58,939 bases of DNA from Candidatus Omnitrophota bacterium. Its GTDB lineage: Bacteria; Omnitrophota; Gorgyraeia; Gygaellales; Profunditerraquicolaceae. The stretch lies in assembly GCA_041663665.1 (NCBI GenBank), contig JBAYMG010000007.1, forward strand, positions 1 through 58,939, written 5' to 3'. A program made the position numbers and the translations under genes. Under the pieces are notes generated by a model, which ran no database searches, was not told the DNA's origin, and saw only the letters and a list, made by a program, of their open reading frames with translations. Shown here piece by piece: positions 20,342 through 30,368 of the stretch. Positions within the stretch are counted from its first letter, which is position 1. Each line of letters starts with the position of its first letter.

Positions 20342-22176
20342 TGTCTAGGTTAAAAAATAAAACTATAAATTTTAAGCTTTTAATTTTATGCTTAAGCCTT
20401 GCGTTTAATGCCTTAAGTTCTGCGGGTATTTGTTTTGCCAAAGAATTTAACTTTGAAGCCACGGTTGATAGGAACAAGCTGTCTTTGGGTAGTTCTCTGC
20501 AGTTAGCTCTGGCATTTGATGACGTACAAAACATGCCAGTTCCGGAATTACCGGCAATTGATGGATTCCAAGCGCGTTATTTGGGCCCTTCAACGATGAT
20601 GTCTATAGTTAATGGAAAGTCATCAAGTTCGATAACGCATAATTACCTGCTTCTTTCGACGAAAGTGGGTAATTTTAAGATTGGGCCTTTTAAAATAGAA
20701 CATAGTGGAGATAGATATACTTCTAATCAACTTAGTGTCGAGGTCTTGGCCGGGCAGGTTGAAAATACTTCTCAACCCGGCAATCAGGCGGAACCGTTGA
20801 TCAAGGATTTAAACGACAGGTTGTTTTTGATAATTCAAACAAAGAAGAAGAGCGCCTATTTAAATGAGATTATTCCGCTAACCATTAAATTGTATATAAA
20901 TAATTTAGGCGTAAGAGATATTCAATATCCGGAGTTCAGCCATGAAGGTTTTTCAGTTGGAAGGTTTGATAAGCCTAACCAGTATCAGGAGGTTTATAAA
21001 GGGGTGAATTTCGATGTCTTGGAATTCAATACTTCAATTTTCGGCTTAAGGCCGGGAGAATTTAAATTGGGGCCGTCTAATATCAAATGTAATTTGATTA
21101 TACAGAAGCAGCCAAGAGGCAGGTCTACTTTTAATTCGAATATCTTTGATGATTTTTTCGGCAGGCAGGAAATCTATCCTGTAAATTTGCAATCCGGGTA
21201 TATCGCGCTTACTGTTTTGCCGCTGCCGGCAGAGAATCGGCCGGAGGATTTTTCAGGTACTTTGGGTAATTTTAATCTTGAAGTGTCAGTTTCTCCTCTA
21301 GAGGTTAAGGTAGGAGATCCGATTACTCTTACTATGGTTGTTAGCGGGGAAGGTAATCTCGATACTGTCGGAGCCCCGAAGCTTAAATCTGAAGCAGGTT
21401 TTAAAATTTACGAGCCCCAAATAAAACAAGCAGGTAACCAAAAGAGTTTCGAGCAAATTATTATGCCAATGAGCGCTCAGGTTAAGGAAGTTCCGATGAT
21501 CTCGCTCGCTTTTTTTAATATTCAGTCCGGGGAGTATAAAACTATAACCCGCGGGCCTTTTCCGATAGTTATCGTTAAGCCTGAAAAAGAAGAAGAGTCC
21601 AAAGTAGTAGAAAATAAACTGCCTGCTGTTGTTCCGGCTGTTCAAGAGGAGAAATTAGGCAGGGATATTATTTATATTAAAGAAAATTGCGGGCATTTAG
21701 CAAGGAAGGGTGAGTATCTTTATAAAAATAGAATATTTTTAGGATTACAGGTTATTCCTTTATTAATTTATTTGTTAACATTTATAATTTATAAAAGGCA
21801 AAGAAGATTTAAAACAGACTTGAAATACGCCAGGCAGCTTTTAGCTCCACGCAAGGCCAGGACAGGGATTTATCAAGCCAAAAAGTATTTAGATAAAGCT
21901 GATGTTGATAAATTTTATGATACTTTATTTGATACCATGCAGGAATATCTGGGAGATAGGTTGCATTTGCCTTCAAAAGGTATAACCATCAGTGTTATCG
22001 ATGAGCATTTAGGCAATAATGTTGTAGACGCCCAGGTACTGGTTAAGCTGAGAGATATCTTCCGGGACTGTGATATGGTTAGGTATGCTTCTTCGCAGCT
22101 AACTGGTGAGAATATGCGCGATTCTTTAAAAAAATTAGAAGAAGTTATTGATTATCTTCAAAGACAAAAAATATGA
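20335..22176 (+). CDS. batD: BatD family protein
   Basis: EATVDRNK, SIVNGKSSSSIT, VKVGDPITL, GEGNL repeated Ig-like modules. Confidence 0.88.
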   Translation: MVMSRLKNKTINFKLLILCLSLAFNALSSAGICFAKEFNFEATVDRNKLSLGSSLQLALAFDDVQNMPVPELPAIDGFQARYLGPSTMMSIVNGKSSSSITHNYLLLSTKVGNFKIGPFKIEHSGDRYTSNQLSVEVLAGQVENTSQPGNQAEPLIKDLNDRLFLIIQTKKKSAYLNEIIPLTIKLYINNLGVRDIQYPEFSHEGFSVGRFDKPNQYQEVYKGVNFDVLEFNTSIFGLRPGEFKLGPSNIKCNLIIQKQPRGRSTFNSNIFDDFFGRQEIYPVNLQSGYIALTVLPLPAENRPEDFSGTLGNFNLEVSVSPLEVKVGDPITLTMVVSGEGNLDTVGAPKLKSEAGFKIYEPQIKQAGNQKSFEQIIMPMSAQVKEVPMISLAFFNIQSGEYKTITRGPFPIVIVKPEKEEESKVVENKLPAVVPAVQEEKLGRDIIYIKENCGHLARKGEYLYKNRIFLGLQVIPLLIYLLTFIIYKRQRRFKTDLKYARQLLAPRKARTGIYQAKKYLDKADVDKFYDTLFDTMQEYLGDRLHLPSKGITISVIDEHLGNNVVDAQVLVKLRDIFRDCDMVRYASSQLTGENMRDSLKKLEEVIDYLQRQKI

Positions 22177-22955
22177 AAATAAAAAGTTTGACTAGTTTAT
22201 TAGTTTTATTTATAGTTTTAAGTTTTCATAGTGTATTTGCGCAAGAGGCAGCGCCTAATGCGCAAGGATCGCTTTTTTATCAGGCAAATGCTTATTACCG
22301 GGAAGGAAAATATAATGTAGCTATCAAGGACTATAAAAAACTTATTGATTCCGGCCTAGAAAGCGGGAATTTGTATTATAATTTGGGGAATAGCTACTTT
22401 AAGCAAGGCCAGCTTGGGCTGGCCCTCTTAAATTATGAAAGGGCTAAGTTTTTTATTCCCCAGGATAGTGATTTGAGATCTAACTTTGAGTATACCCTGC
22501 ATACGTTAAATTTAGAGCCGCAGTCTTTTGGTAGCCGGGCGCAGAGGTTAGTTTATAAATTATTTGAAGCTATGACGCTTGATTTTTTAACTGTTTTTCT
22601 ATCTATTGTGTATGTTATTTTAATTTTATTCTTTATTTTGAATTTATTTTCCAGCGGAATAAAAAAGGTTTTCGGAGTAGCTGTCTCTATATTGCTGACG
22701 TTATTTATTCTATCGGCCGTTGCTTTGGATGGAAGAATAAACTATCTTAATAAAAGTGCTATTGTTGTAAGTAAAGAAGCCGATGTTAAATTTGAGCCCT
22801 TTGCCGGGGCGACTACTTATTTTAAGCTAAATGAAGGCAGCAGGGTAGAAGTAACAGATAAGGCTGAGAGTTGGTATAAATTGAAGCGATTTGATGGAAA
22901 AACAGGCTGGGTAGATAAAGGCGCCTTAGTTTTAATTTCCGGTAATCCCCGATAA
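22173..22955 (+). CDS. batE: BatE TPR + SH3b protein
   Basis: LYYNLGNSYFKQGQLGLALLNYERA; C-terminal LNEGSRV..W....GKTGWV SH3b. Confidence 0.88.
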   Translation: MKIKSLTSLLVLFIVLSFHSVFAQEAAPNAQGSLFYQANAYYREGKYNVAIKDYKKLIDSGLESGNLYYNLGNSYFKQGQLGLALLNYERAKFFIPQDSDLRSNFEYTLHTLNLEPQSFGSRAQRLVYKLFEAMTLDFLTVFLSIVYVILILFFILNLFSSGIKKVFGVAVSILLTLFILSAVALDGRINYLNKSAIVVSKEADVKFEPFAGATTYFKLNEGSRVEVTDKAESWYKLKRFDGKTGWVDKGALVLISGNPR

Positions 22956-23049
22956 TAATATTATTCCTGATCAACTGTTAATGAGCTATTCCCGCGACTA
23001 TTTTTATACAGCTGGTTTCTCGCTGGCTGGGAAAAATAGAAAAAAGTAC

Positions 23050-23100
23050 TTGTTAAGTTGTACTTGAAATAAATAATATATGTTAAATGATACTTGACAA
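23050..23100. promoter_or_regulatory. Two imperfect palindromic operators (TTGTYAAG-N5-CTTRAMAA-like) overlapping the XRE promoter
   Basis: ttgttaag-ttgta-cttgaaat (23050-23070) and atgttaaa-tgata-cttgacaa (23080-23100), exactly 30 bp apart. Confidence 0.55.
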
Positions 23101-23122
23101 GGATAGCTTTTTAGTTTATATT
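23094..23122 (+). promoter_or_regulatory. Sigma70-type promoter of the XRE-cupin gene
   Basis: TTGACA-N17-TATATT; GGAGG RBS before ATG 23144. Confidence 0.7.
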
Positions 23123-23143
23123 CTTACTGGAGGCGCATAAAAA

Positions 23144-23695
23144 ATGAAGATCGTTGGCGTGAATATAAAAAGGTTAAGAGAAGATAAGGGGATGACGCTT
23201 AGGGCTTTTGGCAAGCAGCTAGGGGTTAGTGCCAGTTTTATATCACAGGTAGAAACCGGTAAGGCTTCTCCGTCGCTTTCTACTTTAAAAAATATTGCTG
23301 ATACTCTCTCGACAACTGTCGGTAATTTGATCGGGGAGGGGCAAAAAGCCAGTGATAATCCTGTGGTTAAAGCCAGCCAGCGGAAATATTTACAACAGGT
23401 AGGTAAGGGGGTTAATATTTATCTTTTGACTTCCCAAGACATAAATAAGCAAATGGAACCTATGTTGTTTAAATTAAGCGAGAAGGCTAATTCCGGCGAG
23501 GCTTCTTATAAGCATTTTGGACAGGAGTTTGTTTTGGTCCTTAGGGGGGAAATAGAAATTACACTAAATGATACGATATATATTTTAAAAAAGGGAGATA
23601 GTATTTATTTTAATTCCAGTGTTCCACACGCGTTTAAGAATATCGGCAAGGAAGAAGCAGAAGCTGTTTGGGTGGTCACGCCGCCTACTTTTTAA
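23144..23695 (+). CDS. XRE-family HTH + cupin transcriptional regulator
   Basis: IKRLREDKGMTLRAFGKQLGVSASFISQVETGKASPSLSTL; cupin HFGQEFVLVLRG..GDSIYFNSSVPH. Confidence 0.93.
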   Translation: MKIVGVNIKRLREDKGMTLRAFGKQLGVSASFISQVETGKASPSLSTLKNIADTLSTTVGNLIGEGQKASDNPVVKASQRKYLQQVGKGVNIYLLTSQDINKQMEPMLFKLSEKANSGEASYKHFGQEFVLVLRGEIEITLNDTIYILKKGDSIYFNSSVPHAFKNIGKEEAEAVWVVTPPTF

Positions 23696-23719
23696 AAGGA
23701 AGGATTTTTTTTGGAGTAA

Positions 23720-23740
23720 TTGTTAAGTATAGTTTAATAA
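23720..23740. promoter_or_regulatory. Third copy of the putative XRE operator upstream of the M20/ack genes
   Basis: ttgttaag-tatag-tttaataa; a weaker copy follows at 23740-23760. Confidence 0.45.
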
Positions 23741-23770
23741 TGTTAACTAATATAAAACAGGAGGAACAAA

Positions 23771-24985
23771 ATGAAAGATTTAATTAAGGCTAAGGCAAAA
23801 GGATTGAATGAATCACTGGTTAAGTTTTCCCGCAGAATTGCTGATTGTAATTCTACCGGCACTACGTCAGAATTTACTAAATTAATCTCTGAGGAGATGA
23901 AAAGCTTGAATTTTGATAAAGTGACTAACGATAAGTCAGGTAATCTGATCGGAGTTATTAAGGGATACGAAAATAAAGATGCGCTGGTGGTTATTTCGCA
24001 CCTGGATATTCTGTCGCCGCAAGAACAGAGAACAGAGGCTTGCCTTAAAAGCGGGGTAGTTAAATATAAAGGGGGAATAGTTTCCAGTGTGTACTCCGGG
24101 GCGCTTGTAAAAAGAACATTGTTGCCGTTAACCGGGGATTTAATTGTTTGCTGTATACCCAGGCATGAGTGTTGCGACTCAGGCATAAAGTATCTTTTTG
24201 AGAATTATTTAAAACCAAAGCTTAAAAAAATACGCGGAGTTATTCTTTGCGAGCCGACTGATTTTAATATTCATCTCGGGCACAAAGGAAGAATGGAATA
24301 TGAAATAATTGTTAAAGGCAGGCTGAACCGGAACTTTTTAGAAAATAAAAGCATGAACATGCTGGGGGCAATGTTCCCCTTAATCAGCGAATTGGAAAAA
24401 GCTTCAAAACAATTACCCAGTGATTCTAACTTGGGATATTCTAATCTCAGGATTAAGGATGTCAGATATAGCGGATATCATCCGGAAGATGAACTTAATG
24501 AGTTCAGGGTAGTTGTTGACCGGGTGTTTATTCCTGAGGAAAATCTTAGCGGTATTCTGGATAAAGCAAAGACTATTGCTAAGAATGTGTACAAGGGGGA
24601 GTTGGATATAACTATTAATACCGCTTTGGCCAGGGAAAAAGTAAAAACCTATACCGGTTTAGAGCTTGTTTCGGAGAAGGAATTTAAGCCCTGGGTAATG
24701 GAAAGCCATCATCCTTTTGCGTTAGAGTCACTTAAAAGCCTGGTGGATAACGGTTTTAAATCTTCCTTTGGGTATTGGAAGAAGATTATCACTGAAGGTT
24801 CATATACTTGCGCGGAATTAAATATACCTACGATTGGTTTCGGTGCCGGCTTAGAGGATACAATAGATTCAGACACTGAATCGCTGAGTATGGATAAATT
24901 AGAAAGAGCAGTATACGGGCAAGCGTTGATTATCCAAAGGAATATTGGGGTACCGACATTTGGCTGGAGTTCAGATGAAATATAA
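23771..24985 (+). CDS. M20/DapE-family (YgeY-like) hydrolase homologue with degenerate metal site
   Basis: EEMKSLNFDKV..DKSGNLIG, SHLD, CEPT, GHKGRMEY, IPTIGFGAG match the YgeY/M20 layout; GRGxxD and the C-terminal His ligand are not recognisable. Confidence 0.75.
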   Translation: MKDLIKAKAKGLNESLVKFSRRIADCNSTGTTSEFTKLISEEMKSLNFDKVTNDKSGNLIGVIKGYENKDALVVISHLDILSPQEQRTEACLKSGVVKYKGGIVSSVYSGALVKRTLLPLTGDLIVCCIPRHECCDSGIKYLFENYLKPKLKKIRGVILCEPTDFNIHLGHKGRMEYEIIVKGRLNRNFLENKSMNMLGAMFPLISELEKASKQLPSDSNLGYSNLRIKDVRYSGYHPEDELNEFRVVVDRVFIPEENLSGILDKAKTIAKNVYKGELDITINTALAREKVKTYTGLELVSEKEFKPWVMESHHPFALESLKSLVDNGFKSSFGYWKKIITEGSYTCAELNIPTIGFGAGLEDTIDSDTESLSMDKLERAVYGQALIIQRNIGVPTFGWSSDEI

Positions 24986-26210
24986 AAAAACAAAGATCAA
25001 TATTTTAACCTTGAATTGCGGCAGTTCTTCTTTGAAATACAGGATAATTAGGATGCCGGAGGAGAAATGCCTGGTTCAGGGGGAAGCTGAAAGAGTGGGA
25101 ATTAAAACCCAGGGGGATTCTGTAATTACTCATTCGGTTTTAGGTAAAACCAGAGTTATTAAACTTAAGCTTAAGGATCACGCTGAGGCGTTGAATAAAA
25201 TTTTAAGCTTGATAGCTAACGATGCGCGAGAGAATAAAGAAATAATTTTTGATATTTTTGCGCACCGCTATGTTCATCCCGGTAATTTTTTTACTAAGCC
25301 TGTAAAAGTGAATAAAATTGTTTTAGGTAAGTTGAAAGAAACTTTAAGTTTAGCAGCAATTCATAATCCCATCATCTATAATTTAATTGAATTCTGTAAC
25401 CGAAAATACAAAGCAGTTGAGCAATACGTTGTGTTCGATACCGCGTTTCATAAAACTATACCCGCTGAATTCTCCACCTACGCCCTTCCGGTGAAATTAT
25501 CCAAGAAATATGGCTTAAAGAAAATCGGTTTTCATGGTATATCGCATCAGTATGTAATGGAGGAGGCTTGCAGATTTTTAAAACGGGATCCTAAATTGCA
25601 GAAGGTAATCAGCTGCCATTTGGGCACAGGAGGATCCAGTATTTGTGCAATCAATCGGGGTAAATCATTTAACACTTCTATGGGGTTCACGCCTTTAGAA
25701 GGCTTGGTTATGAATACCCGCTGCGGGGACCTGGATTTAGGAGTTATTTTTTACATAATGTTCAAAGAGAATTTCTCCCCGGTAGAGGCTGAAAATATCC
25801 TTAATAAGAAAAGCGGGATTTTAGGCCTGTTCAGTTCCTCCTCGGATCTAAGGGATGTGGTTGGCAACATTGATACCGATCAAAAGGCAAAAATGGCATT
25901 TGATATGTATGTGCAGAGGGTAAAGGCATATTTAAGTTTTTACGTTTTAATCCTTAAAAAAGCGGATATTTTAATTTTCACAGATTCATTGGGTACCGGA
26001 GTCCCTTTATTGCGCCAGAGTATTTGCGCTAACCTGGATTTTTTAGGGATTAGTTTAGATAAAGATAAAAATCAGGCTTATCAGGATGGAATAGCCCAGC
26101 TAGGGTCTGCGCAGAGCCAAACAAAGATACTGGTTGTTCCGACCAATGAAGAACTTATGATTGCCAAAGAAACTTATAAGGAGTTAATAAAAAATGATAC
26201 TCGTAATTGA
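24975..26210 (+). CDS. ackA: Acetate kinase family protein with atypical nucleotide-binding loops
   Basis: LNCGSSSLKY, HRYVH, FDTAFH, GFHGISH, CHLGTGGSS, TSMGFTPLEG..TRCGD, SDLR, FTDSLG, PTNEE; ATG 24975 preferred. Confidence 0.9.
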   Translation: MKYKKTKINILTLNCGSSSLKYRIIRMPEEKCLVQGEAERVGIKTQGDSVITHSVLGKTRVIKLKLKDHAEALNKILSLIANDARENKEIIFDIFAHRYVHPGNFFTKPVKVNKIVLGKLKETLSLAAIHNPIIYNLIEFCNRKYKAVEQYVVFDTAFHKTIPAEFSTYALPVKLSKKYGLKKIGFHGISHQYVMEEACRFLKRDPKLQKVISCHLGTGGSSICAINRGKSFNTSMGFTPLEGLVMNTRCGDLDLGVIFYIMFKENFSPVEAENILNKKSGILGLFSSSSDLRDVVGNIDTDQKAKMAFDMYVQRVKAYLSFYVLILKKADILIFTDSLGTGVPLLRQSICANLDFLGISLDKDKNQAYQDGIAQLGSAQSQTKILVVPTNEELMIAKETYKELIKNDTRN

Positions 26211-27288
26211 AATGAATCTGAAGGATGTTAAATTTTGGATTTATAAACAAAAAAATATGGGGCTGTCGCATTTTTTTGTAAAGGATATAGAAGAAGTCAG
26301 AACGAGCAAAACACTTAAAAATGATATTCTTAATTTTACCGGCAGCAGCAAGATCGAGGCGATCTCATTCAGGATTTTATTCGGGGGGGATTTTTTTGAT
26401 AAAACCACAGTAATTAATCAACAGTTTTTTACTAAATTCAGCAAGCTGACTGAATTTTTCCCTTTTTATATACCTTTAATATTGGATATGCTGAAAATAT
26501 TTTACCGTGATTTTAAAGATATTCCGCAAATTGCTTTTTTTGAAACCTCTTTTTTTTCCAAGCTGCCGGAAGAAGAAAAATATTATGCGATTCCGCAGGA
26601 GTTCCATAAGGATAATAAAATAAAAAAATGGGGTTTCCATGGGATATACCATGAAGCTAACTCGGGCATGTTCCCCCAGGGGCGAAAATGTATTTCTATA
26701 GTTTTTGATAAACAAACTACAGTTTGCGCGATTAAAGATAGCAAGCCATTAATGATCAGCCTCGGGTTTACACCGTTAGAAGGTGTCATGTCCCGGACCA
26801 GCTGCGGAGACCTGGATCCGGGAATAGTCTTTTATCTGGTAAATGTTCATAAATTTTCAATTTATAAAATCGATGATATCTTAAAAAATGAAAGCGGGTT
26901 TTTGGGGCTTACGGGTTATGATTTAGAGCTAAATGAATTATTAAAATTTTATGGTAAAGACCCCAAGGTGAACGTGGCTTTTGATGTGTATCAGGCGCAA
27001 ATATTAAAATACATTGGAGAAGGTATTTCTGTTTTAGGCGGGCTGGATCAGATTGTATTCTCAGGCAGCCAGGTTGATGCGTTTAATCCGATCATCTACA
27101 GCCTGATTAAAAAGATTTCATTTCTAGGTATTAATACTATAAGATTGCCTTGGGCTAATGATAAGAAAACATTTCAGATTACCTCTGTGGATTCTGAGAT
27201 CAAAGTGCATCTTAACCGGGTTAATCTAGCTGAAACTATTTTTTACGGGACCGAGAAACTTTTACATAAAAAATCATCGAAACTATAA
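26194..27288 (+). CDS. Degenerate second acetate-kinase-fold protein (probable pseudoenzyme)
   Basis: Retains GFHG and LGFTPLEG..SCGDLDPG; lacks GSSSLK, HRxVH, DTAFH, HLGxG, the catalytic Arg of TRxG and PTNEE. Confidence 0.8.
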   Translation: MILVIEMNLKDVKFWIYKQKNMGLSHFFVKDIEEVRTSKTLKNDILNFTGSSKIEAISFRILFGGDFFDKTTVINQQFFTKFSKLTEFFPFYIPLILDMLKIFYRDFKDIPQIAFFETSFFSKLPEEEKYYAIPQEFHKDNKIKKWGFHGIYHEANSGMFPQGRKCISIVFDKQTTVCAIKDSKPLMISLGFTPLEGVMSRTSCGDLDPGIVFYLVNVHKFSIYKIDDILKNESGFLGLTGYDLELNELLKFYGKDPKVNVAFDVYQAQILKYIGEGISVLGGLDQIVFSGSQVDAFNPIIYSLIKKISFLGINTIRLPWANDKKTFQITSVDSEIKVHLNRVNLAETIFYGTEKLLHKKSSKL

Positions 27289-27438
27289 TTTTTAAGATAC
27301 CAGTCTGCCGATTAAACGGTATTTAATCCTAAATGGGGAGTAGGGCTCCTTTAAAACCTCTATATTTTAATAGAAATACACTCCTTTTTTATCCTAAATA
27401 AAGCCTAAAGGCGCTAAATATACGAAGAGTATAATCCA

Positions 27439-27466
27439 TTGACATTAAAAGTATTAGTTTTATAAT
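27439..27466 (+). promoter_or_regulatory. Consensus sigma70 promoter upstream of the RRM gene
   Basis: TTGACA-N16-TATAAT. Confidence 0.7.
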
Positions 27467-27477
27467 AGTTTGTTACG

Positions 27478-27520
27478 ACAAGAGCAGGGAGCGTACCGGA
27501 AAGAATCCCTGTTTTTTTGT
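27478..27520 (+). terminator. Terminator/attenuator-like hairpin in the 5' leader of the RRM gene
   Basis: ACAAGAGCAGGGA / TCCCTGTTTTTTTGT stem with a 15 nt loop, starting about 12 nt after the -10 box. Confidence 0.5.
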
Positions 27521-27580
27521 TTAATCCCTGGAATAACATGTAGTCCCAATAGAGTTACCGTTTAACTATAATAAATAAAA

Positions 27581-28108
27581 ATGAATATCTTCGTCGGAAA
27601 TTTATCTTTTGAGGCTAAAGAATCGGATGTTTTAAGGGCTTTTGCTCATTTTGGCCAGGTTGAGAGCGTGGTAATTGTTATGGACAAAAATGGCAAGAAA
27701 TCCCGGGGTTTTGGGTTTGTCGAGATGCCGGATGAGCAAGAAGCACTGGCGGCAATTACTGCTTTACAGGACAAAGAAATATTGGGCAGGCAGATTAACG
27801 TTATGACCGCTTTGTCCAAGAAACATGAGAGCGAGCCGGAGGATTATAAAAAAAGTGAACCCGAGGATCCTCTTGTTTATAAGCATACAGGCAAGTTTAA
27901 AGAGGGCAGGCGTACGATTAGTTATTTAAAACGCCAAGTGAAGTCCGGGGCTGTTATTTCTGCGCTTGAGCCTAAATTCAAAGCTAATCCGATGCGTTGG
28001 CGTAAGAAATCAAAATGGGCTACTCCTTACCAAAAACCAGAAGGCGAAGCTAAGGCGCTTAAAGCCCGCGCAACAACGAACAGAGGCTTCGTAAAGCATA
28101 AACAATGA
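27581..28108 (+). CDS. RRM RNA-binding protein with a basic C-terminal extension
   Basis: RNP2 IFVGNL, RNP1 RGFGFVEM; K/R-rich tail. Confidence 0.92.
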   Translation: MNIFVGNLSFEAKESDVLRAFAHFGQVESVVIVMDKNGKKSRGFGFVEMPDEQEALAAITALQDKEILGRQINVMTALSKKHESEPEDYKKSEPEDPLVYKHTGKFKEGRRTISYLKRQVKSGAVISALEPKFKANPMRWRKKSKWATPYQKPEGEAKALKARATTNRGFVKHKQ

Positions 28109-28350
28109 AATTAAAACTTAATCTTTTTCCGGTAATTCCGGATATGGAAGTTAAGATGGCTGAGATTATCCAAGAGGCGGTTGACGGCCGTGCCAGCTTG
28201 GTTGAAATTGCTTACGGCCCTGCTGCCGAGAGCGTGAAAAAACGTATACTTAATTTTTTAAATAAGAAAGAGATCCGTCAACTTTATACAAGGCTGGAAA
28301 AGACGGAAAAGGGATGGGGAAGAGTTTATTTGCATTTTAGGTGGAGATAG
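28105..28350 (+). CDS. Stand-alone Smr/MutS2-C-like small protein (degenerate)
   Basis: EIIQEAVDGRASLVEIAYG...VKKRILNFL...KGWGRVYLHF resembles short Smr proteins, but IHGKG is replaced. Confidence 0.6.
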   Translation: MKLKLNLFPVIPDMEVKMAEIIQEAVDGRASLVEIAYGPAAESVKKRILNFLNKKEIRQLYTRLEKTEKGWGRVYLHFRWR

Positions 28351-28358
28351 GGCTACTG

Positions 28359-30368
28359 ATGACTAAAGATAATTTGGTTGATGAATTTTATTCACTGGTT
28401 GATGTCGATGACCGTGATGGCAATTATATTTTAGATATAAAAAACGACAGCTATTTTGGCATGCCATTAAAAAGTATTGTTAACGCGGAGAAACGCCTGC
28501 GTTCTACCGCAAAAGGCGGGATTGCTTATTTCTCTATGGAGTATGGATTAGCCACCAGCTGTTATAATAAGTTATCCAGCCAGCTGCCATTGAATTCAAA
28601 AAATAAACTTCCGGAGAATGCGGTTTTTTCAAATTTCCGTGTGGCGGATTATTTTTTTGCTTTGCATCAGGATAATATTATCGACCTGCCTATTTATAGC
28701 GGCGGCTTAGGTATCTTAGCCGGGGATACAGTTAAGACTATGGCTGATTATAATCTTCCTGTAGCCGGCATTGGAATACTTTGGAATTCAGGTTATTTCC
28801 GGCAGAAGTTCTGGTTTAAATATGGCCAGGCTCCTGAAAAAATGCATTGGGATCCTTACAGCTATCCTGGGTTAATCCCTTTAAAAAATAAAATCAAAAT
28901 TTCCCTTAAATCTGAAGACGTTTATCTTAAACTCTGGAAGTATTATGTTTATAGCCAGAAGCATGATGCAGTTGTGCCGTTGATATTGCTTGATTCTAAT
29001 ATTGAATCGAATAGCCCGCGCGGTAAAGAATTAACTGACCAGCTTTATCGCAGCGATAATGTATTCCTAAAGCTGTTGCAAAGAGTGGTGCTTGGTTTCG
29101 GCGGAATAAGCGCGCTGGATGAATTAGGGTATAATATTGATACTTATCATCTTAATGAGGGGCATGCTGTGTTTGCTTTTGTTGCTAAAGCCAGAGGCTT
29201 AGCCGATGAGGAGCTAAATAAACTAAAACGCAAATTTGTCTATACTTGCCATACTCCGGTTGAAGCCGGACATGACCGTTTTTCTTTTGACGATTTAAAT
29301 AAAGTTCTTAAAAGAGAAGATACAGATATAATTGAGAAATTTGGTAAAGAGCGTTCAGGGGTGGCCAATCTTACTTTACTTTCTATGAATGTTTCCTCGG
29401 AGATAAACGCGGTTTCTCATAATCATCAGAAGGTAATGCATATTCAATTTCCTGCTTATAAGGATCAGATACAATATGTAACTAATGGTGTGCATCCGCA
29501 TACCTGGATTTCACCGGCTTTCAGTGACCTTTTTGAAAAATTTCAGGCAACCTTCCATGATTTTAAAAGTAACCCCATGATCTTGTCCAAGGCAGATGAA
29601 TTAAAAAATAATTTTGATTTTCGTGCTCAATTATGGCAGGCGCATCAATTAAATAAGGTTAATCTTTGTAATCTTTTGGAAAAATGGTCGCTGGATAAAG
29701 ATGTATTTACTATTTGCTGGGCGAGAAGAATGGCTGCTTATAAGCGCCCAAGCCTGATTTTGCATGATATAAGCAGGTTGGTGCGTATTGCCCGCGATGT
29801 TGGGCCTTTGCAAATTATTCTAGCCGGCAAGGCTCACCCTAACGACAATCTGGGTTTTACCTATATTAATGAGATGTTGGATAAGGTCGACCGGTTGGAT
29901 GTAGATTATAAGAAACTAAAAATAATTGTTTTAGAGAATTATGATATTTCTTTGGCTAAAATGTTAACCTCCGGAGTGGATGTTTGGTTAAATAATCCTT
30001 TGCCGCCTTTTGAGGCCAGCGGAACAAGCGGAATGAAGGCGATTTTAAACGGTATCTTGCAAATGACTACGGTTGACGGCTGGGTAGCCGAAGTAACTGA
30101 TAAAAAAATCGGTGCGTTTTTTGGTTATATAAACAGCGAAGGAAGCGTAGGTAATGAGTCTGACTTACACATGAATGATGATTCTGAAGAATTGTACCAT
30201 GCCTTAGAAGGATTAATGAGTTTGTATTATGAAACTAATCAGTCAGGCAAGGTAAATACTTCTTCACAATGGATAGATATGATGATTGAGTGTCTCTGCG
30301 TTTCTGCAAGGTTCAATACTTATCGCATGCTTGATCAGTATAAAGAAAATATCTGGCATATTTCTTAA
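28359..30368 (+). CDS. glgP: Alpha-glucan (glycogen/maltodextrin) phosphorylase
   Basis: YFSMEYGL, YSGGLG.LAGD, HLNEGH, VTNGVH, WARRMAAYKR, AGKAHP, PLP motif EASGTSGMKA; start could be GTG 28341. Confidence 0.93.
   Translation: MTKDNLVDEFYSLVDVDDRDGNYILDIKNDSYFGMPLKSIVNAEKRLRSTAKGGIAYFSMEYGLATSCYNKLSSQLPLNSKNKLPENAVFSNFRVADYFFALHQDNIIDLPIYSGGLGILAGDTVKTMADYNLPVAGIGILWNSGYFRQKFWFKYGQAPEKMHWDPYSYPGLIPLKNKIKISLKSEDVYLKLWKYYVYSQKHDAVVPLILLDSNIESNSPRGKELTDQLYRSDNVFLKLLQRVVLGFGGISALDELGYNIDTYHLNEGHAVFAFVAKARGLADEELNKLKRKFVYTCHTPVEAGHDRFSFDDLNKVLKREDTDIIEKFGKERSGVANLTLLSMNVSSEINAVSHNHQKVMHIQFPAYKDQIQYVTNGVHPHTWISPAFSDLFEKFQATFHDFKSNPMILSKADELKNNFDFRAQLWQAHQLNKVNLCNLLEKWSLDKDVFTICWARRMAAYKRPSLILHDISRLVRIARDVGPLQIILAGKAHPNDNLGFTYINEMLDKVDRLDVDYKKLKIIVLENYDISLAKMLTSGVDVWLNNPLPPFEASGTSGMKAILNGILQMTTVDGWVAEVTDKKIGAFFGYINSEGSVGNESDLHMNDDSEELYHALEGLMSLYYETNQSGKVNTSSQWIDMMIECLCVSARFNTYRMLDQYKENIWHIS

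Follow-up and report, generated by a model that had tools for sequence, protein, structure and literature searches.

The four-gene cassette and its conservation

The stretch of DNA analyzed here (the window) comprises 58,939 nt from a Candidatus Omnitrophota bacterium (assembly GCA_041663665.1 of 1.98 Mb, contig JBAYMG010000007.1, positions 1-58,939), and it contains a cassette of four open reading frames (ORFs), all on the + strand. The ORF listing and family scans of the window proteins reveal, in this order, a 183-aa regulator with an XRE-family helix-turn-helix (HTH) and a cupin domain, predicted to be a local autoregulated repressor (REG, 23144..23695, +); a 404-aa protein with an M20 fold of the YgeY branch, predicted to be a non-hydrolytic accessory subunit (M20-like protein, 23771..24985, +); a catalytically complete acetate kinase, by its signatures of the Entamoeba type, which works with phosphate and pyrophosphate (Pi/PPi) (ACK1, 24975..26210, +, 411 aa); and a 364-aa non-catalytic acetate kinase paralogue, the predicted partner protomer of ACK1 (ACK2, 26194..27288, +). 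These are the XRE-cupin, pseudo-M20, atypical Ack, and pseudo-Ack genes named in an earlier reading of the same DNA (the initial annotation), in which the three downstream genes were said to overlap in series. The overlaps are real; what has to be changed is the start of ACK1, which in the ORF listing is TTG 24945 (end 26210) and which most likely is ATG 24975, because this codon is conserved in orthologous loci. The ATG sits in the final M20-like codons (GAT GAA ATA TAA), giving an 11-nt M20-like/ACK1 overlap that recurs in most orthologous loci. ACK1 and ACK2 overlap by 17 nt in the window, and by 17 nt or by the 4-nt ATGA in orthologues. At the level of sequence, the conserved 11-nt and 17-nt (or 4-nt) overlaps show the M20-like, ACK1, and ACK2 genes to be translationally coupled.

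The distribution of the cassette was surveyed in one genome per GTDB species, scanned with an alignment of the M20-like protein, and 46 loci were obtained. REG, M20-like, ACK1, and ACK2 have the same order and strand in 46/46 loci, as far as the contigs reach. The search for the four-gene synteny in other genomes had been proposed in the initial annotation as one way to check the module, and it returned co-occurrence in 46 species loci with unrelated flanks. At least four phyla are represented, and the taxa include many Omnitrophota (some of them labeled Planctomycetia in their records), Elusimicrobiales, Endomicrobiales, Candidatus Raymondbacteria, and the isolate Geofilum sp. (Bacteroidota); an independent look-up recovered them as well. 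No conserved flanking gene was found, i.e., no family is present in more than 3 of the ~34 loci, and the cassette is therefore self-contained. Among 401 sampled Omnitrophota genomes, the M20-like gene occurs in 13, and ACK2 orthologues (E < 1e-100) occur in the identical 13. Within the window's own genus the cassette is present in 4 of 18 genomes, and it is thus an accessory, patchily inherited unit, which is probably horizontally mobile. In Raymondbacteria (L006/L048:1-7291), an operon for a group-4 hydrogenase/Mrp-like membrane complex immediately precedes the cassette, and PhoU and a Pst phosphate transporter are encoded after it; other loci do not share this neighborhood.

The ratio of nonsynonymous to synonymous substitution rates (dN/dS), determined for close pairs, is 0.03-0.18 over all four genes, namely 0.03-0.07 for REG, 0.06-0.18 for the M20-like gene, 0.09-0.14 for ACK1, and 0.13-0.14 for ACK2. 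Identity to the window protein is 58-84% for REG across phyla, 41-83% for the M20-like protein, 53-79% for ACK1, and 40-71% for ACK2. The two "dead" genes, M20-like and ACK2, are under constraint equal to that of the live ACK1. This bears on the assumption that both are decaying pseudogenes. Their catalytic residues are lost, and one ACK2 orthologue carries an in-frame TAA; however, open reading frames are preserved in almost every one of the ~40 species, dN/dS (0.06-0.18) is the same as that of intact ACK1, 40-83% identity is retained across phyla, and both proteins have confident full-length fold predictions. The assumption has hardly any probability and was rejected on the grounds of dN/dS and conservation. 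The interrupted ACK2 gene, which has a single in-frame TAA, comes from an Omnitrophota genome of the window's genus (L021 = G274:C20:8375-9463); the TAA may have arisen by a mistake in sequencing, or the gene may have been inactivated recently. The M20-like, ACK1, and ACK2 genes form a conserved, co-inherited unit of overlapping genes, a predicted operon, with a dedicated regulator and a common operator. The four-gene module is well supported; its biochemistry we infer.

ACK1 as an Entamoeba-type acetate kinase

ACK1 is recognized by both PF00871 (361.9 bits, cut-off 22) and TIGR00016 (366.6 bits, cut-off 293.4). Residues are numbered here as in the M. thermophila acetate kinase (from the 1g99 alignment), the genome's own canonical AckA was aligned as well, and 38 orthologues each were compared for ACK1 and ACK2. 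In ACK1, N7, S10, S12, R91, H123, D148, H180, R241, R285, and E384 are invariant in 38/38 orthologues, and K14 is K in 37/38 and R in 1/38. The acetate pocket is kept, with V93 and P232 invariant, position 122 occupied by I in 34 and L in 4 sequences, and F179 being F in 37 and Y in 1. The family-specific changes are A8C, N211 to T/S with one extra Gly (HLGTGG), G239N, A330D, G331 to S/T, and N335 to G/E. The motif HLG[TSA]GG is found in 37/38 orthologues (position 211: T in 31, S in 5, A in 2), and the FTD of the ADENOSINE motif, with Asp at the D322 position, in all 38. Gly331 is lost in 38/38, position 331 being S in 32, T in 5, and D in 1.

These changes recall the acetate kinase of Entamoeba histolytica (EhACK; EC 2.7.2.12, PDB 4H0O). 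This Pi/PPi enzyme is defined by an extended PHOSPHATE2 loop with an extra Gly (Gly203) and by Asp in the ADENOSINE motif, and Gly331 is completely conserved in ATP-dependent acetate kinases (Dang and Ingram-Smith, 2017; PMC5517563). The residues occluding the ATP cleft in EhACK are T201, D322, Q323, M324, and E327 (PMC5931981). In the pairwise alignment of ACK1 with EhACK (4h0o), the segment CHLGTGGSS.C.I..GKSF.TSMG is nearly identical, and FTDSLG stands opposite FTDQMG. The two proteins share the acetate kinase fold and the full catalytic set. In both, the PHOSPHATE2 loop is extended by a Gly, the T201 position is occupied by Thr and the D322 position by Asp, and the Gly331 of ATP-dependent enzymes is replaced. 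They differ in that the cassette ACK1 is always accompanied by a dead paralogue, the M20-like protein, and a dedicated repressor, none of which has been described for EhACK. Because the nucleotide pocket is remodeled as in EhACK, ACK1 is predicted to run the reaction acetyl-phosphate + Pi <-> acetate + PPi rather than to use ADP/ATP. In view of these signatures, the acyl-phosphate/PPi link that the initial annotation suggested for the module appears reasonable.

One may ask if ACK1 is just an ordinary second ATP- or NTP-dependent acetate/propionate kinase lying beside unrelated genes, the "module" being a mere conserved neighborhood. ACK1 does pass TIGR00016, and swapping the signature residues failed to convert ATP-dependent acetate kinases to PPi use, or the reverse (PMC5517563, PMC5931981), so the signatures do not prove donor specificity. 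However, an unrelated neighborhood would have to explain perfect synteny over four phyla with unrelated flanks, the joint presence of the M20-like and ACK2 genes in 13/13 genomes, the conserved translational-coupling overlaps, and the operator common to both promoter regions, while an ordinary nucleotide-dependent enzyme is hard to reconcile with Ser, Thr, or Asp instead of Gly331 in 38/38 orthologues. We consider this explanation very unlikely.

ACK2, a conserved paralogue without the catalytic set

ACK2 scores 170 bits with PF00871 and 169.7 bits with TIGR00016, the latter being below the cut-off of 293.4. Eight active-site residues are replaced: N7 by D/E, S10 by L, S12 by E, H123 by Y, D148 by E, N211 by K/R, R241 by S/A, and E384 by L. 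The P-loop is replaced as well. The replacing residues are themselves conserved, with Y at position 123 in 37/38 orthologues, E at 148 in 36/38, V at 208 in 37/38, D at 210 in 37/38, K/R at 211 in 35/38, Q at 212 in 34/38, and L at 384 in 25/38. R91, F179, H180, and P232 are retained. The AlphaFold2 (AF2) model of ACK2, with a predicted local distance difference test (pLDDT) of 85.6, has the full two-domain acetate kinase fold and template modeling (TM) scores of 0.72-0.81 to solved acetate kinases, including 4h0o. By canonical criteria both ACK2 and the M20-like protein (see below) are pseudoenzymes, as had been suspected of two of the three downstream genes.

The ACK1-ACK2 pair outside the cassette

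Searches with EhACK, for which a sequence rebuilt from a printed alignment served as the query, recovered Entamoeba species first and then bacteria of many phyla at 45-50% identity. Among the best 120 matches, HLGTGG is present in 120/120; 115 of them also have FTD[DQTE], two have FSSD, and three have no match to the motif. The genomic context of EhACK-like kinases was inspected in seven cases, and an ACK2-like gene lies beside the kinase gene in all of them (7/7); in six it overlaps or abuts, and in one there is only a fragment after a ~390-nt gap. In 5/7 contexts, the pair is followed by a gene of the FolE2 family (PF02649), scoring 62-75 bits against the FolE2 cut-off of 215. These ACK1-ACK2-FolE2-like loci carry the labels Sedimentisphaerales (L057:6001-9148), Sumerlaeota (L058:6001-9078), Omnitrophota (L074:5001-8065), Brevinematales-like (L075:5001-8084), and Bacteroidota (L076:5001-8099). 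The trio resembles a sister operon in which another "dead" protein is the third partner. As in the cassette, an EhACK-type kinase is followed by an overlapping stripped paralogue, the third protein is a very divergent member of a metallo-hydrolase family, and the ACK2 proteins of both operons fall into one clade. In contrast to the cassette, whose M20 fold is encoded upstream, the third partner has the FolE2/T-fold and is encoded downstream; there is no adjacent XRE-cupin regulator, and the ADENOSINE motif is mostly FTDD, whereas it is FTDS in the cassette. None of the 13 cassette-bearing Omnitrophota genomes contains a PF02649 gene, and the M20-like and FolE2-like partners therefore look like alternatives.

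A quick maximum-likelihood search with two outgroup sequences, in which some ACK2 branches are long, gave three well-supported clades apart from the two canonical acetate kinases: cassette ACK1, EhACK-like kinases including those of Entamoeba, and all ACK2 proteins. The three form a trichotomy, and the ACK1 and ACK2 subtrees mirror one another. Judging from these sequences, the ACK1-ACK2 pair is of ancient origin; it predates the cassette and is much more widespread. The Entamoeba enzymes group, with a support of 99, among bacterial HLGTGG/FTDx kinases of many anaerobic phyla, which would fit a bacterial origin of the Entamoeba gene.

Four sequences of Anaerolineaceae were previously flagged as putative PPi-dependent acetate kinases (Dang and Ingram-Smith, 2017; PMC5517563). 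In Ornatilinea apprima (L056:3777-8191), the gene for the putative enzyme that the paper names overlaps with a downstream ACK2-like gene (330 aa), so that a dead paralogue is present here too, of which the paper makes no mention; a gene for an ADP-forming acetyl-CoA synthetase-like protein (704 aa) lies upstream. No M20-like or FolE2-like gene adjoins this locus. A cassette-type M20-like gene was also sought elsewhere in the Ornatilinea genome, and only generic M20 genes (E 3.5e-9) were found.

REG and its operators

Pfam domains HTH_3 (E 5.5e-13) and Cupin_2 (E 1.9e-17) are found in REG, and the invariant residues of its cupin half include E105, H124, Q127, E128, D152, H162, and N166. This is the architecture of PuuR-type XRE-cupin repressors, with an N-terminal HTH_3 and a C-terminal cupin in ~185 aa that match the PuuR model over its full length, and like them REG is a local regulator adjoining the genes it probably controls. 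PuuR is also the best NCBIfam model for REG; however, the score of 78.8 bits is below the cut-off of 211, so that REG shares the architecture and is not a PuuR orthologue. The predicted REG operator differs as well, being composed of TGTTAA boxes.

Upstream of REG, two operator boxes were read from the sequence (23050..23093, +), i.e., TTGTTAAGTTGTACTTGAA (23050-23068) and ATGTTAAATGATAC (23080-23093). The ATGTTAAATGATAC box directly abuts the -35 hexamer of the REG promoter, which is of the sigma-70 type (23094..23122, +; TTGACA, 17 nt, TATATT) with 11/12 consensus matches. The TTGACA and TAnnnT hexamers are kept upstream of REG in orthologous loci, and the whole layout GTTAA-N6-9-TTGACW-N16-18-TAnnnT is present in 35/40 of them. 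A further operator (23720..23752, +; TTGTTAAGTATAGTTTAATAATGTTAACTAATA), with three (G/T)TTAA boxes about one helical turn apart, lies in the spacer between REG and the M20-like gene, which has 75 nt in the window and 65-80 nt in most loci. The conserved pattern of this spacer is TGTTAAsT-N4-rTTAA-N3-4-TGTTAAsTAATA; a strict regular expression finds it in 23 loci, and relaxed forms are present in most others. GTTAA is found 26.5 times per kb in the spacer before the M20-like gene, 15.4 times per kb in front of REG, and 1.27 times per kb in the remainder of the loci, which corresponds to a 12- to 21-fold enrichment in both promoter regions. The candidate operator that the regulator was supposed to share with the downstream genes therefore occurs in both regions far above chance.

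In a genome-wide scan with a position weight matrix (PWM), the spacer operator of the cassette is the top site at 25.3 bits, and the next best has 18.0 bits. No further regulon member scoring high was found in the window's genome beyond the cassette's own site. Because only this site scores high in the genome (25.3 vs at most 18 bits), REG is predicted, most simply, to be a dedicated, autoregulated local repressor. The second-best site (18 bits) belongs to an orphan REG paralogue on contig C91, and the third (contig C14) lies within a coding region and was treated as chance. The paralogue (C91:497-1042, - strand, 183 aa, 64% identical to REG) is encoded in the same genome and has the same promoter/operator layout, with the operator-like site after its stop codon. 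M20-like and ACK genes are missing downstream of it; the gene located there encodes a membrane protein, has a separate promoter, and is cut by the end of the contig, which has 3.1 kb. The paralogue may be what is left of a second cassette, or the contig may belong to a co-binned strain. No REG homologue at E <= 1e-40 was found in 60 other genomes of the same taxonomic family, and the idea that REG belongs to a widely distributed group of regulators was rejected.

The operator sequence is different in Geofilum sp. (L005/L053:2100-2830), where it is again common to both regions: a palindrome TTCAGTATTCATTA...TAATGAATACTGAA is located upstream of REG and TTCAGTATTTATTAAC in the REG-M20 spacer. 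This suggests that the regulator and its operator co-evolved after transfer. In an uncultured member of Elusimicrobiales (L042:620-921), the REG-M20 spacer has 302 nt instead of ~70 and contains GC-rich hairpin-forming repeats, resembling an insertion of a repetitive extragenic palindromic (REP) or miniature element; a smaller GC-rich hairpin insertion is found at the same place in locus L035. In the window, an AT-rich palindrome followed by a run of eight T covers the REG stop codon (23684..23719, +; palindrome search), and a T-run of 6-9 follows this stop in nearly all orthologous loci. A consensus scan gave one terminator-like site, with its stem at 23669-23687 and a tail to 23697. The element at the REG stop is possibly a weak terminator or a spacer element.

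An Rfam scan of 22000-28500 at E <= 0.1 gave no riboswitch or other RNA match. The 290-nt stretch 3' of ACK2 (27289-27580) is non-coding and likewise has no Rfam match. A perfect TTGACA-16-TATAAT promoter lies at 27439-27466, ~110 nt upstream of a gene for an RRM-type RNA-binding protein (27581-28108).

The M20-like protein

The M20-like protein stays just under the cut-off of the Pfam M20 family (24.0 bits, cut-off 24.6) and well under that of NCBIfam YgeY NF009555 (154.6 bits, cut-off 321). A search of the PDB with the single sequence gave no match; the relatives came from profile and fold searches. The AF2 model (pLDDT 86) has the two-domain M20 fold, and its top Foldseek match is DapE (7uoi, E 2e-21, TM 0.69-0.72). 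The model matches DapE, 5-nitroanthranilate aminohydrolase, PahZ2, LysK, ArgE, and CPG2 with 12-16% identity and TM ~0.6-0.77; E is 1e-17 to 2e-21 for DapE, 5-nitroanthranilate aminohydrolase, PahZ2, LysK, and CPG2. In a profile search of 1.84 billion representative proteins, the family proper comprises about two dozen clusters (above ~240 bits), below which the score drops to proteins that are YgeY by NCBIfam, the nearest relatives outside the family.

The metal ligands were mapped by alignment with YgeY proteins and DapE. The first His (H77) is mostly kept in the family, the second-site Glu (E133) is partly kept, and E161, within the sequence CEPT, is kept. The bridging Asp is replaced by Phe/Tyr after a 12-residue deletion, the general-base Glu is lost, the position being variable, and the lid His and the C-terminal (last) His are both lost. 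Two features are specific to the family, Cys135, which hardly ever varies, and a new tail conserved at the C-terminus, RNIGxPTFGWSSDEI; the identification of this tail with the His385 motif of CPG2 was judged spurious (alignment -3.6 bits). The YgeY family (NF009555 / TIGR03526), the nearest in sequence, shares the two-domain fold; however, the bridging Asp, general-base Glu, lid His, and C-terminal His ligand are gone from the M20-like protein, and its locus has no selenium- or purine-catabolism neighbors. Canonical hydrolysis by the M20-like protein seems unlikely from its sequence.

A hydrolytic role has nevertheless to be considered as part of a two-step catabolic or salvage route. Here, the M20-like protein, using His77, Glu161, and Cys135, would free acetate or a short carboxylate from an N-acyl compound, ACK1 aided by ACK2 would convert it to acyl-phosphate, and REG would sense the substrate. 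The intact fold (pLDDT 86), TM ~0.7 to the deacylases DapE, ArgE, and LysK, the large conservation of H77, E161, and C135, and the order hydrolase-then-kinase, which suits a pathway, are all in agreement with such a route. PuuR-type XRE-cupin regulators respond to catabolic substrates, and PuuR is the best NCBIfam model for REG. However, the general-base Glu, bridging Asp, last His, and lid His are all gone, no transporter or further catabolic gene is conserved nearby, and an unrelated fold, that of the FolE2-like protein, occupies this place in sister operons, which is hard to square with one hydrolytic step. In addition, EhACK strongly favors the acetate-forming direction (PMC5931981). Taken together, we regard the two-step route as unlikely.

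Genome setting and proposed mechanism

The initial annotation noted no pta, pdu, or eut genes in the window. In the genome, the only PTA_PTB gene is on contig C9, next to a canonical ackA, and no shell genes of bacterial microcompartments (BMC) are present. Modules of the pdu/eut type for acyl-phosphate metabolism (PduW, EutQ, and EutP with microcompartments) have shell genes or an adjoining phosphotransacylase, both of which the cassette lacks; a pdu/eut or microcompartment context was therefore ruled out. The genome also encodes a membrane H+-PPase, PPDK, and two genes of the PFK family, which are candidates for further users of PPi.

We propose that the cassette encodes a repressor-controlled, heteromeric, non-ATP acetate kinase linking acetyl-phosphate to PPi, a reading drawn from sequence for which the balance of evidence is about even. 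REG would bind the TGTTAA-type boxes at two places, beside its own -35 hexamer and in the 75-nt spacer before the M20-like gene, and would be released from the DNA when a small molecule is bound by the cupin domain. ACK1 would be the sole catalytic component, catalyzing acetyl-phosphate + Pi <-> acetate + PPi. Acetate kinases act as dimers, and the solved ones crystallize with two or more chains; ACK2 is proposed to replace one protomer of such a dimer. The M20-like protein would be a non-hydrolytic accessory, ligand-binding, or sensor subunit, whose place is taken by the FolE2-like protein in sister operons. Acetyl-phosphate could be supplied by Pta (contig C9), and PPi could be used by PPDK and the membrane H+-PPase.

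Several points weigh against this mechanism. The signature match of ACK1 is partial, as only T201, D322, and the extra Gly are common with EhACK; ACK1 has Ser/Thr-Leu/Ile where EhACK has Gln323-Met324, and the position of EhACK E327 is Gly in 26/38 orthologues, the window included, and Glu in only 8/38. In the quick maximum-likelihood tree with its two outgroup sequences, cassette ACK1 appears as a separate clade of the trichotomy and not as part of the EhACK clade. According to the paper in which the signatures were defined, it may be that enzymes of this kind in bacteria work with neither ATP nor PPi (PMC5517563). As we read the literature (PMC5517563), EhACK is active without any partner, so neither ACK2 nor a third protein is needed for catalysis as such. 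Finally, the retention of H77, E161, and the near-invariant Cys135 in the M20-like protein may point to a non-canonical metal site or activity.

A different emphasis is placed if the cassette is a metabolite-sensing or regulatory device, in which the two pseudoenzymes bind small molecules and gate ACK1 to set the level of acetyl-phosphate, a global acetyl/phosphoryl donor, or signal to other proteins. The near-invariant replacements in ACK2 (Y123, E148, D210, K/R211, Q212) point to a retained binding site, and the third partner swaps between two ligand-binding folds. The cassette is also accessory (13/401 Omnitrophota, 4/18 of its own genus) in a genome that already has housekeeping pta-ackA. 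However, ACK1 has the full catalytic set and is under strong purifying selection, and Pfam/NCBIfam scans found no signaling output domain in the four proteins. Such a device overlaps with the proposed heteromeric kinase and does not exclude it; as a separate explanation it appears quite unlikely.

The heteromeric kinase may also be an instance of something more general. It is possible, though in our opinion doubtful, that bacteria possess a so far undescribed class of heteromeric acetate kinases that are linked to Pi/PPi instead of ATP. The Entamoeba-type catalytic subunit would have two obligate partners, a dead paralogue and, as an allosteric ligand sensor, a dead metallo-hydrolase that can be either M20-like or FolE2-like.

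Implications for PPi-dependent acetate kinases

The PPi-dependent acetate kinase was described as "found only in Entamoeba histolytica" (PMC5931981). The data presented here indicate that a kinase with the Entamoeba signature is widespread in uncultured anaerobic bacteria, contrary to its status as an Entamoeba curiosity. In bacteria, it is accompanied by a conserved dead copy, often by a dead metallo-hydrolase too, and in the cassette also by a dedicated repressor predicted to respond to a ligand. The initial annotation knew of no described pathway of such composition, and text searches of the literature, which retrieved the EhACK papers and the 2017 remark on four Anaerolineaceae sequences, likewise gave no account of the gene set. 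They returned neither a tandem dead acetate kinase paralogue nor an XRE-cupin regulator, nor a partner of the M20-like or FolE2-like kind.

The cassette is a clear natural case of pseudoenzymes on which purifying selection acts no less strongly than on the catalytic protein, and it addresses the question of the physiological role of PPi-dependent acetate kinases and of the rules by which they select their donor. Questions that can now be tested are whether the partners determine donor specificity or have a gating function, which signal calls for the formation of PPi from acetyl-phosphate, and what the source of the Entamoeba gene was. If the heteromeric class with a sensor as its third protein is real, a metabolic signal would be required before the energy of acetyl-phosphate is turned into pyrophosphate, and in the cassette variant the cupin repressor would have to be released as well.

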